A stretch of DNA of 64,000 nucleotides from Candidatus Omnitrophota bacterium (GTDB taxonomy: Bacteria > Omnitrophota > Gorgyraeia > B26-G9): NCBI GenBank assembly GCA_018817165.1, contig JAHITY010000101.1:278-64277 (forward strand), in the 5' to 3' direction. Under the pieces are notes generated by a model. The model ran no database searches and was not told the DNA's origin. It saw nothing but the letters and a program-made list of their open reading frames with translations. Shown here in pieces: positions 4,128 to 42,243 of the stretch (position 1 is the stretch's first letter; the number at the start of each line of letters is the position of its first letter). The position numbers and the translations under genes were made by a program.

Positions 4128-5228
4128 TTGGCAAAACATACAGTTACGTTTATCCCGGGCGATGGAATTGGGCCGGAAGTTTCCGATGCAGCAAAGCGGT
4201 GTGTTCTGGCTACCGGAGTTGATATTTATTTCGAAGAAGTGCATGCTGGGGCTGATATCCTTGAAAAAACCGGCACTTTATTGCCTGGATCAGTATTAGA
4301 ATCAATTAAGAAGAATAAAGTTGCGATTAAAGGGCCGATAACTACGCCGGTGGGAAGCGGATTCCGTTCAGTTAATGTTGCTCTGCGCAAAGCTAATGAT
4401 CTTTATGCTTGTGTTCGTCCGTGTAAGACATATAAAGGGGTTCAGACTAAATACGATAATATTGATTTGGTTATTGTCAGAGAAAATACAGAGGATTTAT
4501 ACGCGGGTATTGAGTTTGAATTAGATAAGCCTGAGACTTTGGATTTAATTAGTAAAATTGAAGCAATGTCTGGAGCAAAGATCAGAAAAGATTCTGGGAT
4601 TAGTATTAAACCGATATCGGTTACGGGAACACGGCGGATTGTTAAATACGCATTTGAATACGCGATTAAGCATGGCAGGAAAAAAGTTACCGCAGTGCAT
4701 AAAGCGAATATTATGAAATTCAGTGATGGATTATTTTTAAGCGTTGCCCGAGAGGTAGCCAAAGAGTACGAGGGAGAAGTAGAATTTGAAGATAAAATAG
4801 TTGATAATATGTGTATGCAGCTTGTTCAGCGGCCACAAAATTTTGATGTGCTTGTTCTTCCGAATCTTTACGGGGATATAATTTCTGATTTATGTGCGGG
4901 TTTAATCGGCGGATTAGGTGTTGCCCCGGGAGCAAATATCGGAGAGGAAATTGCTTTGTTTGAAGCAACTCATGGCAGTGCTCCGAAATATAAAGGTAAA
5001 AATCAGATGAATCCTTGCGCAATGATTTTTTCAGCTGTGTTAATGCTTGATTATTTAAAAGAAGAAAAGGCCGCGCAATTACTTGAGCAAGCAACGGCAG
5101 AAATTATTGCTGAAGGTAAATCAGTTACTTATGATTTTAAATCAGATAGGAATGACTCTTCAATAGTCGGAACAAAAGAAATGGCTGATGCTATTATCGA
5201 GAGAATTAAACAACTTAAAAGTGCTTAA
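4128..5228 (+). CDS. icd: NAD-dependent isocitrate dehydrogenase (IDH3/homoisocitrate DH type of the isocitrate/isopropylmalate DH family)
   Basis: TTG start after AAGGAGG; motifs GFRSVNVALRKANDLYACVRP, VRENTEDLYAGIEF and NLYGDIISDLCAGLIGGLGVAPGANIG resemble IDH3 rather than LeuB; adjacent to mdh and aconitase. Confidence 0.75.
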   Translation: MAKHTVTFIPGDGIGPEVSDAAKRCVLATGVDIYFEEVHAGADILEKTGTLLPGSVLESIKKNKVAIKGPITTPVGSGFRSVNVALRKANDLYACVRPCKTYKGVQTKYDNIDLVIVRENTEDLYAGIEFELDKPETLDLISKIEAMSGAKIRKDSGISIKPISVTGTRRIVKYAFEYAIKHGRKKVTAVHKANIMKFSDGLFLSVAREVAKEYEGEVEFEDKIVDNMCMQLVQRPQNFDVLVLPNLYGDIISDLCAGLIGGLGVAPGANIGEEIALFEATHGSAPKYKGKNQMNPCAMIFSAVLMLDYLKEEKAAQLLEQATAEIIAEGKSVTYDFKSDRNDSSIVGTKEMADAIIERIKQLKSA

Positions 5229-5260
5229 AATAAAGAAACATTAATCTAAAAGGATTTGAT

Positions 5261-6178
5261 ATGAAAGTAAGTGTTATTGGAGCTGGTAATGTGGGAGCAA
5301 CTTTAGCCCAAAGAATAGCTGAGGCAGATATTGCGGATATTGTATTATTGGATATTGCGCAGGGATTGGCCAAGGGCAAGGGGTTGGATTTGTCAGACGC
5401 GCGTTCAATTATTGGACATGATCGCAATATCCTGGGCACAAGTGATTATAATGATATTGCTGATTCTAAAATAGTTGTTATAACTGCCGGATTGGCTCGT
5501 CAGCCGGGGATGACCAGAGAAGATCTTGTAAATAAAAATACGGCGACTATAAAAAAAGTTATTGCTTGTATTTGCGAAAAAGCGCCCGAAGCTATAATAA
5601 TCATGGTTACAAATCCTTTAGATATTTTAACTAATATTGCTTTAAAGATCAGTGGGTTTAATCATAAAAAAGTAATTGGCATGGGCGGATTGCTTGATTC
5701 TTCCCGCTTTGCCAATCTGATAGCCGAAAGATTAAATGCCTCTCCCAGTGAAATTGAGGCCATGGTAATTGGAGCACATGGTCAAAGCATGTTACCTTTG
5801 CCTAGATTTACAAAAGTGGCAGGCAAAAAATTAACGGAATTACTTTCTCAAGCGGAATGTGAAGAACTGTCTAAAGATACAGTTAATCGAGGGGCTAAAA
5901 TTGTAGAGTGTTTGGGCAATGGCAGTGCTTATTATGCGCCTTCCGCCGCGGCATTCGCGATGGTTCAGGCAATAGTAAAAGATGAAAAAAAAGTATTGTC
6001 GGCTTGCGTCTATTTAAATGGAGAATACGGGATAAAAGATGTCTGTATTGGAGTCCCGATAATTTTAGGAGCATCTGGGGTTGAGCAGATTGTTGAATTA
6101 GAACTTACAAAGCAAGAAACTGAAAGCCTAGTTAGCTCGGCAAACGCGGTTAAGTCAGCGGTTGCTGCTTTATCATGA
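5261..6178 (+). CDS. mdh: malate dehydrogenase (LDH-like MDH family)
   Basis: MKVSVIGAGNVGATLA… Rossmann N-terminus, ITAGLARQPGMTREDL, catalytic-His region IGAHGQSMLP. Confidence 0.9.
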   Translation: MKVSVIGAGNVGATLAQRIAEADIADIVLLDIAQGLAKGKGLDLSDARSIIGHDRNILGTSDYNDIADSKIVVITAGLARQPGMTREDLVNKNTATIKKVIACICEKAPEAIIIMVTNPLDILTNIALKISGFNHKKVIGMGGLLDSSRFANLIAERLNASPSEIEAMVIGAHGQSMLPLPRFTKVAGKKLTELLSQAECEELSKDTVNRGAKIVECLGNGSAYYAPSAAAFAMVQAIVKDEKKVLSACVYLNGEYGIKDVCIGVPIILGASGVEQIVELELTKQETESLVSSANAVKSAVAALS

Positions 6179-7101
6179 TTAAAAAAAACATAGTTTTTAG
6201 TTTTTTGCTTTTTGTTTTTTTCCTTTCCCAAATAATTTTACTCATATCAGCCAAGCGCGAAATAAGCCGAGAGATGTTGATTATGGGCACTGTTTGCCGG
6301 ATCAGCATTGTTTCAGGAAAAAATCTTAGTCCGCAGCAGGCAGAAGCCGCGCTTAATAATGCATTTGCTTTGCTTAAAGATTATGAGCGCAGATGGAATT
6401 TTTACGCCAAAGACAGCGAGCTTAGCTTGATCAATGCGCAGGCTTTTAACCAGTCTGTAAAATTATTGCCAGACACCCGCGAGATTGTCAGCAAATCTTT
6501 AGAACTTTCTGCTTTAACCAATGGCGCTTTTGATATTACAGCAACCTCTTTACAGCGGCAAGGTGGCTATGGTACTATTATTTTAGAGCCTCATGCTCAA
6601 TCGGTTATGTTTAGTGATTTGCAGACAAAAATAGATCTGGGCGGTATTGCAACAGGTTATGCCATTGATCAGGTTCGGGAAGTTTTTAAGAATAATAAAG
6701 TGAATAATTACTTGATTGATATTGGCGGAGATATTTACGCGTCTGGGAAAAATCAAAAAAATAAATTTTGGGAAATTGGAGTGCGGAATCCCTTTGACCA
6801 AAATATTATAATTTCCGATTTTCCGATTAAAGATCAAGCGGTTACTACCTCGGGTAATTATCTGAAAAAGCATATTATTGATCCGCAGACAGCTGTTTTG
6901 GCGGATAATAATATTGAAAGTGTTACAGTAATTAGCGATAGTTGTTTAGAGGCAGATGCCTTAGCTACAGCTTTTTTTATTATGGGCATAGAGCAATCAA
7001 AAGTTTTTATTGATAATTATAAAAATGATATTCAAGTATTGTTTGTGAAAAACATGAAAAATACTCCTGAGATTGTGAAATATAATTGGAAAAAAGATTA
7101 G
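6175..7101 (+). CDS. apbE: FAD:protein FMN transferase (ApbE family), exported
   Basis: N-terminal signal/TM segment; IDLGGIATGYAID… and DIGGDIYASG motifs of ApbE; overlaps the mdh stop by 4 nt. Confidence 0.8.
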   Translation: MIKKNIVFSFLLFVFFLSQIILLISAKREISREMLIMGTVCRISIVSGKNLSPQQAEAALNNAFALLKDYERRWNFYAKDSELSLINAQAFNQSVKLLPDTREIVSKSLELSALTNGAFDITATSLQRQGGYGTIILEPHAQSVMFSDLQTKIDLGGIATGYAIDQVREVFKNNKVNNYLIDIGGDIYASGKNQKNKFWEIGVRNPFDQNIIISDFPIKDQAVTTSGNYLKKHIIDPQTAVLADNNIESVTVISDSCLEADALATAFFIMGIEQSKVFIDNYKNDIQVLFVKNMKNTPEIVKYNWKKD

Positions 7102-10257: not shown

Positions 10258-10707
10258 ATGAATAAATGCAGAGTTTTTACTCTTAAGAAAATAAAACCGC
10301 AAAAAATCACAAAACAAAGTTTTAAAAAATACGGTTCTATTATCGAATGGGATGGTCCTGAAAATAAAGCGGAAAAAAATCAATTTAGAATTGTAATCCG
10401 TGATAGTAAAGTCACTGGATGGAGAATCGCTTATCTGATTGTTCGCAAAAAAAAAGTTGATTTTTTGGAGCAACATCCGCGTTCTTATGAGAGTTTTGAG
10501 CCGATTAAAGGAAAGTCGATTATTTATGTTGCAAATAAGAAAAATTCTAAAAATATAGAGGCTTTTATTCTGGATAAGCCGATAGTATTGCGTAAGGGGC
10601 TTTGGCATAATGTAGTTACAGTAGGAAAAGAGGCTCATATTAAAATTACTGAGAATAATGATGTTGCTCTTATAAAGCAGTTTTTAGGTTATTGGCTTAC
10701 AGCTTAA
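10258..10707 (+). CDS. ureidoglycolate lyase (AllA)-like cupin protein
   Basis: FKKYGSIIE…, LEQHPRSYESFEPIKGKSIIYVA… and GLWHNVV resemble AllA motifs (FSAYGDVIE / LERHPLGTQAFIPM / NYHRNVWHHP). Confidence 0.5.
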   Translation: MNKCRVFTLKKIKPQKITKQSFKKYGSIIEWDGPENKAEKNQFRIVIRDSKVTGWRIAYLIVRKKKVDFLEQHPRSYESFEPIKGKSIIYVANKKNSKNIEAFILDKPIVLRKGLWHNVVTVGKEAHIKITENNDVALIKQFLGYWLTA

Positions 10708-10918
10708 AATAATAAGGATCCCGACAATATCTGCTAGGCCGCAGCTATTTCGGACTAAATTCGAGCAGGCTGACTTGATGTCGCTTGATGCTCCATAAGT
10801 CAGGCTTAAATAATAATGATTCCGAAAATATCTGCTAGGCCGCAGCTATTTCGGACTAAATTCGAGCAGGCTGACTTGACGTCGTAAAGAACACTCCGTA
10901 AGTCAGGCTCTCATTTAA
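10708..10918. repeat. two tandem copies of an about 105-bp dispersed repeat (third copy at 35927-36036)
   Basis: direct reading: aataataa(g/t)gat(c/t)ccga(c/a)aatatctgctaggccgcagctatttcggactaaattcgagcaggctgacttga(t/c)gtcg…taagtcaggct; internal hairpin (see findings). Confidence 0.85.
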
Positions 10919-10984
10919 TTGACGGGGTGTGTTTTTTATGCTATCGTATAATCCAATATATTGAGTCGAGGTGTATAAATAATC

Positions 10985-11263
10985 ATGGAATATCAAATAT
11001 ATCAGCTCGAAAAAGAAAAAAAATTTGAAGCAACCTGTCTGCGCTGTGGTAATTGCTGCGGGGCACAAGATGATCCCTGTATGCATCTAGTAATCCAGCC
11101 TCATGGAGAGTATTTTTGTGATATTTATGATTCTCGAGGAGGAGTGCAGAAAACACGTTCGGGTAAATTTTTTGAATGTGTTTCTATCCGAGATATTCTG
11201 CATGAAGATTGGTCGGGTAATTGGAATTGTGCTTATAAAAAACAGAATAATATCATAACATAA
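10985..11263 (+). CDS. YkgJ-family (CxxCxxCC) putative zinc/iron-sulfur-binding small protein
   Basis: CLRCGNCC motif plus additional Cys/His; 92 aa. Confidence 0.55.
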
Positions 11264-11289: not shown

Positions 11290-11532
11290 ATGATTGATCA
11301 GCGAATAATATTAAGTAAAAAGGAACTTCCTAAATCTTGGTATAATATTCAAGCTGATTTTTCTAAGCCAGTAACTCCGGCATTAAATCCGGTAACTGGC
11401 AAACCAGCTACTGCTGATTCGGGCTCGCATAAGACGAAGACTGCGCTTGCCCAAGCTTATTATAATAATAAACAAGCGGGAGTCAAGAGAATCGCTACAG
11501 AAATAGGCGCGGGACAGTGGGAAGCGCATTAG
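11290..11532 (+). pseudogene. remnant of a tryptophan synthase beta-like (TrpB2-type) gene with an internal in-frame deletion and 3' truncation
   Basis: [28 protein letters not shown] (TrpB2 N-terminus) joined directly to [34 protein letters not shown] (PLP-lysine GSHK and ETGAGQWG regions, normally about 55 aa downstream); ORF stops after 80 aa, whereas TrpB is about 400-450 aa. Confidence 0.55.
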
Positions 11533-31374: not shown

Positions 31375-31583
31375 GTATTGAGTATCGAGTATTGAGTATT
31401 GAGAAAAAACATGAAACAGAAAAAGCGGTAAAAGGTTTGACGGTTACGAAGCCCGTATCGGTAATGTTAACGGTCACGGTTTAAAATAATAAATTTTAAG
31501 CCGATAGACTTTGCCCTAAAACGAAACGGGCATCGTAACCTTAAACGTAACCTTTGTCTTTTAAATAATAGGGAGTTAAAAAC
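31375..31583. repeat. GTATYGM heptamer tandem array (x4) followed by an about 180-nt region with long-range inverted repeats (GGTTACGAAGCCCGT … ACGGGCATCGTAACC)
   Basis: direct reading; occupies the unusual 214-bp gap between ilvB and ilvN. Confidence 0.6.
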
Positions 31584-34296: not shown

Positions 34297-35832
34297 ATGG
34301 AAAAGAAAATAAAGATATTTGATACCACATTAAGAGATGGCGAACAAGCTCCGGGGGCGAGTCTGAGTGATCAGGAAAAACTGGAAGTCGCGCGTCAGCT
34401 TGTCCGTTTAGGTGTTGATATTATTGAAGCCGGTTTTCCGATTTCCTCTCCGGGTGATTTTGATAGTGTGCAGCAGATCGCCCGGCAGGTTAAAGGCGCG
34501 ATTATTTGCGGCTTAGCAAGATCATTAAATAAAGATATTGAAGCAGCCGCGCAGGCGCTTAAGCCGGCTAAAAGAAAACGGATTCATGTTTTTTTGGCTA
34601 CTTCAAAAATCCATATGAAGTACAAATTAAAAAAAGCGGAAAGTGAAATTCTAAAGATAGCGGAAGCCGCGGTTAAATACGCCGGTAAATTTACTGATGA
34701 TATTCAGTTTTCACCGGAAGATGCTTCACGAACCGAAAAAGATTTCCTTTTTCGAGTGATTGAAAAAGTTATTAAAGCCGGAGCAACTACAGTGAATATT
34801 CCGGATACAGTTGGTTTTGCCCAGCCTGATGAATTTGGTCAGCTGATTCATGATATTTGTAATAAAGTGCCGAATATAAACAAAGCGATTATCGCGGTAC
34901 ATTGTCATAATGATCTGGGTTTGGCTGTGGCTAATTCCTTGGCAGCGATTAAAAATGGCGCGGGACAGATTGAATGTACGATTAATGGCATAGGCGAGCG
35001 CGCGGGTAATGCGGCTTTGGAAGAAATTGTGCTTAGCTTGATTACCCGGAAAGATCATTTTAAAAACATGTATTGTGGCATTAAAACAAAAGAGATTTAT
35101 AAAACTAGTAGATTGGTCAGTAAGCTGACGGGTTTTTTGGTTGCTCCGAATAAGGCAATTGTCGGCGGTAATGCTTTTCGCCATGAATCCGGGATTCATC
35201 AGGACGGCGTACTGAAAAAACGCCAGACTTATGAAATTATCAGTCCGGAAACCGTGGGATTTTACGGTGAAGGCTTGGTGATGGGCAAACATTCAGGCCG
35301 ACATGCTTTGTCTGATCGGCTGGAGCGGCTTGGGTTTAAACTGAATAAAAAACAGCTGGATATTGCGTTTAGCCGGTTTAAAGATCTGGCGGATAAGAAA
35401 AAAGAAGTATTTGAAGAAGATCTTATCGCGATTGTCGAAGAGCAGTCTAAAGAAATGGAACAGGTCTGGAGTCTGGAAGCTTTGGAATTTTTTGGCGGAA
35501 TAAATGTTCAGCCTAAAGCAACAGTTAAGCTGAAAAATAAGAAAATGGTTTTTAGCGCCACTTCCGATGGCGATGGCCCGGTTGATGCTTGTTATAAAGC
35601 AATTGAAAAAATTATAAAGCTTAAAGCTGTATTGCTTGATTATTCAATTCAGGCAGTTACGCGGGGAAAAGATGCTTTAGGGGAAGTTAATGTAAAGCTC
35701 TTGATCAATAAGGAAGAAATTTCCGGCAGAGGCGCAAGCACAGATATTATTGAGGCATCAGCCAAGGCATATCTTAATGCGGTCAATCGGGTTTTATTTA
35801 AAAAAGAAAAGTCTAAAAAAATAAAATTGTAA
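34297..35832 (+). CDS. leuA: 2-isopropylmalate synthase (or citramalate synthase) with LeuA-dimer regulatory domain
   Basis: [11 protein letters not shown]…, [12 protein letters not shown]; start set at MEKK… after a GGAGAAAG RBS. Confidence 0.85.
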
Positions 35833-35926
35833 TGATTAACAGCGTGTGGGACTAAGGTAAAATATATCTTTTCATTTATCCTGAGCTTGTCGAAGGGCTA
35901 AGCCCAAGTTTAGTAAGTGAGGCATG

Positions 35927-36036
35927 AATAATAAGGATTCCGAAAATATCTGCTAGGCCGCAGCTATTTCGGACTAAATTCGAGCAGGCTGACTTGACGT
36001 CGTGAAAAACACTCCGTAAGTCAGGCTCTCATTTAA
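35927..36036. repeat. third copy of the about 105-bp dispersed repeat
   Basis: near-identical to copy 2 at 10808-10918. Confidence 0.85.
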
Positions 36037-36263
36037 AGCGCCGCTAAAAGAGAAATTTTGACCTAAATAGTTTGTAAAGCCACAAGGATGCAAAGTTAAG
36101 AGGGCTAGAATAATCATTTTAGCGGGTTTGAAGCCTGATTTTGATAGGACTGTCAAAATCAGAGATTCATCCTCGGAGCCTTACAGGAAGTAAGGCGAGA
36201 ATGAGCAGAAATGATTGATTCTAGACCGCCATTGACTTGCTGGCTACAAGACAGGGATTCAGC

Positions 36264-37157
36264 ATGATAAGTAAACAGAAAGTTTATGGTCTTATCGGTT
36301 ATCCGGTAAAGCACAGTTTTTCAGCGGCAATGCATAATGCCGCTTTTTCTCATTTAGGGATAAATGCTTTGTATACTTTATTTGAGATAAAGCCTGATGA
36401 TTTGGAAGCTTTTTTGCTGGAAAGAACTGATCTGGCTGGGTTTAATATTACAATTCCGCATAAAGTTTATGCGAAAAAAATTCTAGAAACAAAATTTAAG
36501 GGTAGTAATCCCGGAGCTGATCAATACAGCGAACTTGTCGGAGCAATTAATACCGTTGGTCGTATAGATGATGGAAAAGTTTGGTGGGCAAACACAGATG
36601 CTCCGGGTTTTGTAAAATCATTAAAGATGGATTTAGGATTTGCAAAAACAAAAAATAAAGACGCATTGGTTTTGGGCTGCGGCGGAGCCGGTAGGGCTGT
36701 TATTGCTGGGTTAAGCTCAGAAGATAATGGTTTGGTCAGAGATATATATGTTAGTGAAATTAATAAGGATAATGTTACTGCTGTAAAAAAACAGTTTGAA
36801 TGTTTTTCAAAGGTTACTGATAAATTAAAATTTATTCAGAAAGAAGAAATCGCGGAAAAAATAAAGGATTGCTCTTTACTTGTGAATACAACTCCCATTG
36901 GCATGAAAGATGACAATATCAGTTTGATTGATAAAGAGCTTTTACATAATAATTTAATGGTTTATGATGTTGTGTATAATCGAGAAACTAAGCTGATAAA
37001 AGATGCAAAAGCGCAAGGATTGAAAGCTATCGGTGGTTTAGGCATGCTTTTATACCAAGGAGTACTTGGTTTTAATTATTGGGCAGGCAAAGATATTGCT
37101 CCTGTGGATATAATGCGACAGGCTTTAGAAGGAGAACTGGAAAAATGCCGGATTTGA
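36264..37157 (+). CDS. aroE: shikimate dehydrogenase
   Basis: VYGLIGYPVKHSFSAAMHN… and NITIPHK motifs. Confidence 0.85.
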   Translation: MISKQKVYGLIGYPVKHSFSAAMHNAAFSHLGINALYTLFEIKPDDLEAFLLERTDLAGFNITIPHKVYAKKILETKFKGSNPGADQYSELVGAINTVGRIDDGKVWWANTDAPGFVKSLKMDLGFAKTKNKDALVLGCGGAGRAVIAGLSSEDNGLVRDIYVSEINKDNVTAVKKQFECFSKVTDKLKFIQKEEIAEKIKDCSLLVNTTPIGMKDDNISLIDKELLHNNLMVYDVVYNRETKLIKDAKAQGLKAIGGLGMLLYQGVLGFNYWAGKDIAPVDIMRQALEGELEKCRI

Positions 37158-38155: not shown

Positions 38156-38164
38156 AAAAGTAGT

Positions 38165-38242
38165 GAGTATCGCGTATCGCGTATTGAGTGAAAAACAAAG
38201 GAAAAGAAAAACTAAACGCTAATCGCTTGACGCTATACGCTA
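38165..38242. repeat. GTATCGC/GTATTGA heptamer array plus downstream partial inverted copy
   Basis: gagtatcgcgtatcgcgtattgagtg … acgctaatcgcttgacgctatacgct. Confidence 0.6.
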
Positions 38243-42143: not shown

Positions 42144-42243
42144 CCGTATCGCGTATTGAGTATTGCGTATTGAGTCTAAATATAAAACAAAAGCAAAAAA
42201 TAGTTCTTTTTGCGCAATACGCGATACGCACGACGCAATACGG
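42144..42243. repeat. inverted pair of GTATYGM heptamer arrays (4 units each) flanking an about 36-nt A-rich spacer
   Basis: ccgtatcgcgtattgagtattgcgtattgag … gcgcaatacgcgatacgcacgacgcaatacgg. Confidence 0.7.

Follow-up and report, generated by a model that had tools for sequence, protein, structure and literature searches.

A structured, tandem-repeatable intergenic repeat unit of Omnitrophota, probably the internal module of a composite repeat family

Classical MITEs (e.g., the Correia elements of Neisseria and the ERIC/IRU sequences of enterobacteria) have clear terminal inverted repeats, to which the Correia elements add a TA target duplication. BOX elements are organized as boxA-(boxB)n-boxC; those of S. 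suis have end modules of two kinds, with the same boxB between them (PMC3049150). REPINs commonly show compensatory changes, form tandem clusters and insert into other REPINs (PMC3116915). For the Omnitrophota, an uncultured and poorly characterised phylum, our literature search found no description of interspersed repeats. The sequence described here, which we call unit A, is multi-copy, dispersed and intergenic; it forms arrays, is gained and lost between relatives, takes part in composite elements, and contains two hairpins in which pairing has been kept. With moderate confidence, we take unit A to be the internal module, repeatable in tandem, of a family of composite, non-autonomous and structured intergenic repeats that belongs to a narrow group of Omnitrophota.

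Within the window (i.e., the whole 64,000-nucleotide stretch of an Omnitrophota contig that was analysed), there are three copies of unit A, all intergenic and on the same strand, as an earlier note on this DNA had stated:

10708-10808, + strand: unit A copy 1, an internal array unit of 101 nt without the CTCTCATTTAA tail; covariance-model score 96.3 bits
10809-10919, + strand: unit A copy 2, a terminal array unit with the CTCTCATTTAA tail; covariance-model score 128.2 bits
35927-36037, + strand: unit A copy 3, between leuA and aroE

Direct reading of the window sequence (10400-11200 and 35700-36300) places copies 1 and 2 head to tail at a spacing of 101 bp; Tandem Repeats Finder, run on the window, left this array of only about two copies unreported. 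The earlier note had described the upstream half of the unit as nearly invariant, and the 45-mer TATCTGCTAGGCCGCAGCTATTTCGGACTAAATTCGAGCAGGCTG is indeed identical in 3/3 copies, occurring exactly three times in the window with no mismatches and never in 100 dinucleotide shuffles. A repeat search of the window delimited a family of 123 nt, in which copies 2 and 3 are 95% identical to one another and 67% identical to copy 1, without gaps. Copy 1 starts 1 nt past the TAA stop of a 149-aa, ureidoglycolate-lyase-like ORF (10258-10707), and copy 2 ends 65 nt upstream of a 92-aa CxxC ORF, exactly at the -35-like hexamer (TTGACG) of the promoter-like site that this downstream gene shares with the corresponding loci of three relatives (L023, L025 and L026). 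Upstream of copy 3, leuA has its stop at 35832, and the segment immediately 5' of the copy (35912-35923, AGTAAGTGAGGC) is, by its sequence, probably a remnant of the hairpin-2 3' arm from a further, degraded unit A.

The surroundings of the copies have several features of their own. At 10687-10707, the last four codons of the ureidoglycolate-lyase-like gene are wholly different in the window from those in L023, L025 and L026, the C-terminus of the 149-aa protein reading GYWLTA* in the window against a conserved GYK(I/L)(G/S)(V/I)* with no change in length; insertion of the repeat may have remodelled the 3' end of this gene and supplied its stop codon. The promoter-like site 5' of the 92-aa CxxCxxCC gene has the form TTGACN-N17-TATCGTATAAT, with a TG before the -10, in four genomes:

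10919-10952 in the window: promoter-like site, its -35 hexamer abutted by the repeat pair
about 4498-4535 in L023, with equivalents in L025 and L026: the same promoter-like site

Further downstream, an 80-aa ORF (11290-11532) looks like what is left of the N-terminal end of a 452-aa PALP (tryptophan-synthase-beta-like) gene; the gene is intact at the equivalent position in L023, L025 and L026, which suggests that this gene has been deleted or is a pseudogene in the genome of the window. Elsewhere in the window, heptamer tandem repeats (GTATTGA / GTATCGC), along with an inverted pair of them, are found at 31375-31403, 38160-38194, 42146-42175 and 42207-42241.

Beyond the window, an exact 22-mer had a single match among 185,579 species-representative genomes, namely the leuA-aroE spacer of an Omnitrophota MAG (JAHITE010000125.1, locus L001), and a 21-mer search matched 11 contigs, all of metagenome Ga0180007. 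With nhmmer and a covariance model built here (R1), there were 20 matches, arrays included. Altogether, unit A has at least 18 copies of 101-111 nt, of which fifteen or more lie beyond the window, on Omnitrophota contigs of a single metagenome and in a single Omnitrophota MAG. Arrays contain two units in the window, two in L004, and at least three in L007, where the array reaches the contig end. In Logan assemblies of the window's own organism, breaks fall inside the repeat, as is expected of a multi-copy sequence. Among viral contigs, a 17-mer of hairpin 1 had seven chance matches, none of which extended, and a 21-mer of the linker had none; nor did PLSDB plasmids contain any match to the repeat. 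In L007 there are also two copies (5195-5245 and 5385-5440) of another hairpin repeat of about 50 nt (AAAUAACCCUGAACCGA...UUCUGGUUCCGGGGUAAA), which lie upstream of and at the start of a sigma-70-like gene, and one of which weakly matches R1 (26.7 bits).

All-against-all BLAST of the flanking sequences, together with alignments, revealed that unit A often resides within larger repeats. Repeat B is about 165 nt long and is bounded by GGCAAAAAC.../...TTTTTGCC; its 5' hairpin covaries, its center holds a UUUUGACAUCCNUGUCAAAA hairpin, and it has an 8-bp perfect terminal inverted repeat (GGCAAAAA/TTTTTGCC). Repeat C, of about 280 nt, is dispersed in the same Omnitrophota contigs. The locations of these carriers are as follows:

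35856-35926, + strand, window: diverged 5' module of B (GGTAAAATATATCTTTTCATTTATCCTGAG...), which includes 35912-35923 and is missing in the JAHITE01 orthologue
36036-36063, + strand, window: 3' module of B (AAGCGCCGCTAAAAGAGAAATTTTGACC; family consensus AAGCGCCGCTCAAAGAGAATTTTTGCC)
L002 8323-8445; L012 2623-2745 and 11623-11745; L028 127-250; L029 2341-2463: B without A
L004 9341-9553; L008 7776-7990; L011 10795-10873; L012 2255-2484 and 11305-11532: C repeat

Unit A occupies the center of B in L003, L005, L006 and L009 (with window copy 3 as a diverged case) and the center of C in L008 and L011; C without A occurs in L004, L008, L011 and, twice, in L012. Within carriers the relative orientation of A is constant, and the resident central segment is replaced with sharp boundaries; A is found alone, free of carriers, as well. 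Because the four composites of B with A are 94-97% identical over about 200 nt, the composite itself must have multiplied. Heptamer runs of the CGCTAAT/CGCTATC type, similar to those in the window, flank C repeats in Ga0180007 contigs.

Comparison of orthologous spacers shows that the unit comes and goes while its neighbors stay. Homologues of the 149-aa protein led to the spacers orthologous to that of copies 1 and 2, and in JBPKSV01 (89% amino acid identity), JAZDHZ01 (74%) and a Logan contig (75%), i.e., at loci L023/L024, L025 and L026, the spacer lacks the unit, with which the covariance model agrees, and the downstream promoter-like site is conserved in all. The empty spacer of L025 has a small hairpin and then a T-run (GCGAAAAATCGCATATTTTTT) at the position that the repeat pair occupies in the window. 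Between leuA and aroE, the window and JAHITE01 both contain unit A; in L028, carrier B holds a 30-nt hairpin in place of A, L029 has B inverted, L027 has a fragment of B, and L030 has no spacer.

Unit A shares with MITEs its small size, lack of coding capacity, multiple copies and insertion polymorphism between relatives. According to the earlier note, terminal inverted repeats and target-site duplications would mark the unit as simply a MITE, and in this literal sense it gives no convincing sign of being one. Its ends show only a weak inverted match of 5-7 nt (TAAAT..GA / TCATTTA), in which T/G changes at column 9 are uncompensated, and the 5' and 3' flanks of 13 sites contain no consistent target-site duplication, the empty orthologous sites being too diverged to place the junction. 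TTAA or TAA is present at both junctions of the window pair and could belong to the element. The unit looks less like a classical MITE than like the inner module of a composite repeat. From the three identities that had been offered for it, site polymorphism, occurrence in both orientations, arrays and nesting favor a REP/MITE-like element; a family of small RNA genes is disfavored by the evidence on promoters, terminators, retention at orthologous loci and Rfam matches that is given below.

With respect to neighboring genes, orientations vary, about six units being sense, four antisense and two placed between convergent genes, and the 20 flanking proteins are unrelated housekeeping proteins (among them radical SAM enzymes, LptF/G, adenosine kinase, AcrB, ArsR, ABC-2, DegT, an epimerase, P-II and a sigma factor) with no common theme among the flanking genes examined. 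It is unlikely, if still worth serious consideration, that unit A is a host-beneficial cis-acting RNA module whose mobility is secondary, i.e., a protective or terminator-like element at 3' ends, or a stabiliser or translation modulator in 5' UTRs. Units do begin at or just past stop codons (window copy 1, the L007 unit at 6668, and the L001 copy, which starts 7 nt past leuA), and the L005 and L009 sites lie between convergent genes; yet sense and antisense placements are about equal, and the genes concerned are functionally unrelated. Each strand has a hairpin at its end and, after it, a tail moderately rich in U, and canonical terminator-like sites are not enriched in the genome of the window, but no U-tract at the units satisfies the terminator rule. 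At the other end, units finish at a Shine-Dalgarno sequence (within about 1-10 nt) in L004, L012 and the L007 variant; in L012 an extended -10 (TGGTATAAT) lies 7 nt 5' of the unit. The L007 variant, which has kept hairpin 1 and has a different, GC-rich second hairpin, sits directly 5' of the ribosome-binding site of a P-II gene, but it is preceded by canonical terminators. Although the hairpin and T-run in the empty L025 spacer and the complete identity of an orthologous copy across diverged genomes (see below) would both suit a cis-acting function, the unit is missing at the same sites in relatives that keep the same genes.

The identity in question concerns copy 3, which matches the same-locus copy in JAHITE010000125.1 at 111/111 positions. 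Around it, leuA has 88% nucleotide identity and AroE 71% protein identity; the flanking spacer differs by about 20-30%, and the adjacent 3' module of B also differs at many positions. With flanks about 85% identical, 111 bases would all remain unchanged with a probability on the order of 1e-8 (0.85^111). Because a selfish insertion that is decaying would diverge, such identity is unexpected, and it requires that the copies were recently converted from a master sequence common to both, were exchanged horizontally, or are strongly constrained at the level of the host. An explanation of the last two kinds, which we consider distinctly improbable, is that A is a sequence-constrained functional RNA or single-stranded DNA module (e.g., one that a dedicated protein uses as its binding platform, or a regulator that can be carried from one UTR to another) that Omnitrophota occurring together share horizontally or retain under extreme purifying selection. 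Such a role would account for the 111/111 identity, the invariant linker AAAUUCGAGC, and the repeated placement of units against Shine-Dalgarno sequences. The CUCUC tail could pair with the Shine-Dalgarno sequence, as at L012, to form a switch-like leader.

The same spacer holds another structured sequence. Just 5' of the aroE start there is an element of about 150 nt, designated D (window 36085-36230, + strand; L001 2389-2532; L028 268-419), which has 92-98% identity among three genomes, as against only 71-75% for their AroE proteins. Its fold comprises a long closing stem and internal hairpins, one of which has been swapped stem for stem (GCCUUAC/GUAAGGC vs. GUCCCGC/GCGGGAC, with four compensatory pairs). 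D is single-copy in all sequence fetched, is not in the equivalent spacer of L027, L029 or L030, and has no Rfam match; it could, judging from these sequences, be an unrecognised leader or non-coding RNA of the aroE-aroC operon.

Tandem paralogues are common among small RNAs, and arrays of unit A might therefore be taken for paralogous genes of trans-acting small RNAs, each unit or pair being transcribed alone and using the invariant linker or loop to pair with its targets. Neither the linker AAAUUCGAGC nor most of the hairpin-1 loop varies, and the units fold stably (z-scores -3.3 to -5.5), but the features expected of such genes are lacking and we regard this origin as very unlikely. At both loci, promoter-like and terminator-like sites occur at chance level, with none conserved before or behind the units; there is no intrinsic terminator, and internal units of arrays have no spacer in which a promoter could lie. 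Moreover, units overlap stop codons, are nested in other repeats in a fixed relative orientation, and are not retained at orthologous loci. The Rfam scan that the earlier note had proposed gave no matches at the gathering score in the whole window, and only chance-level ones (E>3) around both loci in permissive mode.

Several other kinds of element were considered and rejected. A small ORF, encoding a 23-aa peptide from ATGATTCCG... with start ATGATTCC, lacks its ATG in about half of the copies, and the covariation in the stem alters the peptide. Sequence inspection disposed of an internal sigma-70 promoter: the TTGACG in hairpin 2 has no -10 at the right spacing. Unit A contains no R''/R' core sites (RYYYAAC / GTTRRRY) of an integron attC, and its copies are scattered among housekeeping genes. 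Finally, an array of a toxI-like type III toxin-antitoxin system is countered by the differences among the genes 3' of arrays (a CxxC protein, a secreted protein, and in one case nothing or a contig end), and by the occurrence of units singly and in antisense.

Unit A is predicted to fold as two hairpins next to each other. The predicted hairpins, and the pair that first drew attention to them, are located as follows:

10821-10855, + strand: hairpin 1 of copy 2, predicted fold UCCGAAA(A)UA(U)CUGC-UAGGCC-GCAG(C)UAUUUCGGA
10720-10754 and 35939-35973, + strand: hairpin 1 of copies 1 and 3, respectively
10864-10912, + strand: hairpin 2 of copy 2, predicted fold GAG(C)AG(G)CUGACUU(G)ACG...CGUAAGUCAG(G)CUCUC
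35982-36030, + strand: hairpin 2 of copy 3
10770-10803, + strand: inner part of hairpin 2 of copy 1
10779 and 10795: pair at alignment columns 72/90, CG in 13 copies, UA in one and UG in one

The earlier note had singled out a stem that reads GACTT[G]ACG...CGTAAGTC in copies 2 and 3 and GACTT[G]ATG...CATAAGTC in copy 1, and had viewed its matched C-to-T and G-to-A changes as a sign of selection on structure rather than of passive duplication. Both sequences are as described, T 10779 and A 10795 of copy 1 converting C-G to U-A, and the argument can now be extended to compensatory changes in both hairpins and to 15 copies. For this we used a plain MAFFT alignment of 15 distinct copies, which, being plain, was not fitted to the structure. 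Standard pairs make up 93.5% of 449 pair cells, as against 27-40% in a control in which the 3' partners were slid by 1-3 columns. Eight pairs have double changes, compared with 3.5 +/- 1.3 in shuffles (two of 500 shuffles reach eight), and the covariation score of 0.172 exceeds that of the control (0.096) and is reached in 0/500 shuffles. Hairpin 1, whose family form has the 6-nt loop UAGGYC, has 13 pairs, 94.8% of its cells being paired and two of its pairs showing double changes; hairpin 2, with a conserved bulged G, a G.G mismatch and a variable apex, has 18 pairs, of which six show double changes, and 92.6% pairing. Among individual pairs, A-U has become G-C at 22-39 in three copies, and C-G has become U-A at 63-98. 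These compensatory changes, along with the level of pairing across 15 copies, indicate selection on the fold of unit A, and the invariance of the linker AAAUUCGAGC in 15/15 copies hints at sequence-specific recognition.

Wobble pairs favor neither strand consistently as the functional one: there are 16 G.U on the + strand vs. 9 A.C (which are G.U on the - strand), partly from misregistered divergent copies, and 2 G.U vs. 5 A.C among the best 13. For the three copies of the window, folding is slightly better on the minus strand, by a margin too small to be telling. A further stem (AAUGA/UCAUU) that would enclose both hairpins has no support, since the T/G variation at column 9 is uncompensated.

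Template switching that corrects imperfect palindromes is an established mutational process, and compensatory changes could in principle be a by-product of such switching at quasi-palindromes, of intra-hairpin repair, or of gene conversion among copies, in which case the fold would not be under selection. Loops are indeed short (that of hairpin 1 has 6 nt), and the double changes common to neighboring array units (L004a/b and L007b/c) may be single events. Nevertheless, the bulged G (column 70) and the mismatches U.C (23/38) and G.G (62/99) persist across copies, though template switching would be expected to erase them. At pair 73-89, which is G-C in seven copies, A-U in two and U-A in two, uncompensated U.C intermediates (L003 and L006) coexist with differently compensated derivatives, and in L007b and L004a the whole of hairpin 1 has essentially been resequenced (CCCGAAUCAGCAGC...GCUGCUUCUCGGG) and is still paired. 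A purely mutational origin of the covariation is, on this evidence, very improbable. Inverted repeats with short spacers, invariant sequence blocks and an intergenic location would also suit double-stranded DNA sites, i.e., palindromic half-sites for a nucleoid-associated or regulatory protein, but this is extremely unlikely, because the stems vary while complementarity stays (A-U to G-C, C-G to U-A, and whole-stem swaps), which means that the fold has been preserved and not the half-site sequence, and because the units have no tie to particular genes or promoters.

If unit A is, as we favor, the internal module of a composite mobile repeat, its spread would depend on a trans-acting enzyme that recognises a folded single strand, by analogy with REP/REPIN sequences and RAYT or with other hairpin-dependent systems. 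Among the 20 flanking proteins and the fetched loci, which are genome fragments, there is no transposase, RAYT or related IS. The fold would be selected since only foldable copies propagate, are tolerated, or both, and arrays would grow and shrink through unequal recombination or slippage. A point that counts against a mobile element is that A appears to replace resident sequence in B, in C and at the site of copies 1 and 2, and no standard transposition mechanism accounts for such replacement; recombination or gene conversion between carrier copies may add to the spread and would explain this cassette-like pattern.

Copies that are co-transcribed with their neighbors would form two stable RNA hairpins and would probably alter mRNA stability, read-through or translation, which we see as a side effect rather than the reason for the existence of the element. 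Candidate sites for such effects are those 3' of stop codons (window copy 1, L007 and L001) and that of L012, where the unit lies between a likely extended -10 and a Shine-Dalgarno sequence and probably forms a 5' UTR. Units sit on 3' ends, in 5' UTRs, and against a promoter whose -35 box they touch, and if they affect the genes that they abut, they would let regulation vary rapidly between genomes that are otherwise syntenic. The family also breaks short-read assemblies and marks recent genome rearrangement, and unit A provides a natural data set, and a clean one, for studying how folded hairpins are maintained by selection in selfish DNA.

Among described systems, the MITEs resemble unit A in being small, non-coding, dispersed and structured, in their presence/absence polymorphism, and in that they can be transcribed into neighboring mRNAs and affect them; unlike them, A alone lacks convincing terminal inverted repeats and any recognisable target duplication, the 8-bp perfect terminal inverted repeat being a feature of carrier B only. 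REP and REPIN sequences, which are associated with RAYT in Pseudomonas and E. coli (PMC3116915, PMC8266576), are likewise extragenic, multi-copy and hairpin-forming, with compensatory changes, tandem clusters, elements in or beside other elements, and some copies conserved far above neutral expectation. A REPIN, however, consists of two inverted short REPs in one long hairpin, whereas A has two unrelated hairpins side by side; A also lacks a conserved 5' tetranucleotide of the GTAG type, and no RAYT gene was seen in the fetched loci.

The BOX elements of S. pneumoniae and S. suis (PMC3049150) are similar in their modularity, with mutually pairable terminal modules around an internal module that is self-folding, optional and capable of tandem repetition (0 to n), as is A in its B and C carriers. 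Just as two kinds of end surround one boxB in S. suis, the ends of B and the ends of C both occur here around A, and both families are intergenic, present in both orientations, strongly folded, and often (for unit A, probably) co-transcribed with their neighbors. This likeness is one of architecture only, and the host phylum differs. Whereas boxB is about 45 nt long, A has 101-111 nt and two hairpins and also occurs free of carriers; furthermore, the carriers described here hold an alternative short hairpin when they are without A, and no IS with matching ends was identified, the end motifs of B being too short for a search with them to be informative. Taking the comparisons together, the best reading is that unit A works in the manner of structured interspersed repeats of the BOX/REPIN type and would not represent a new kind of system.
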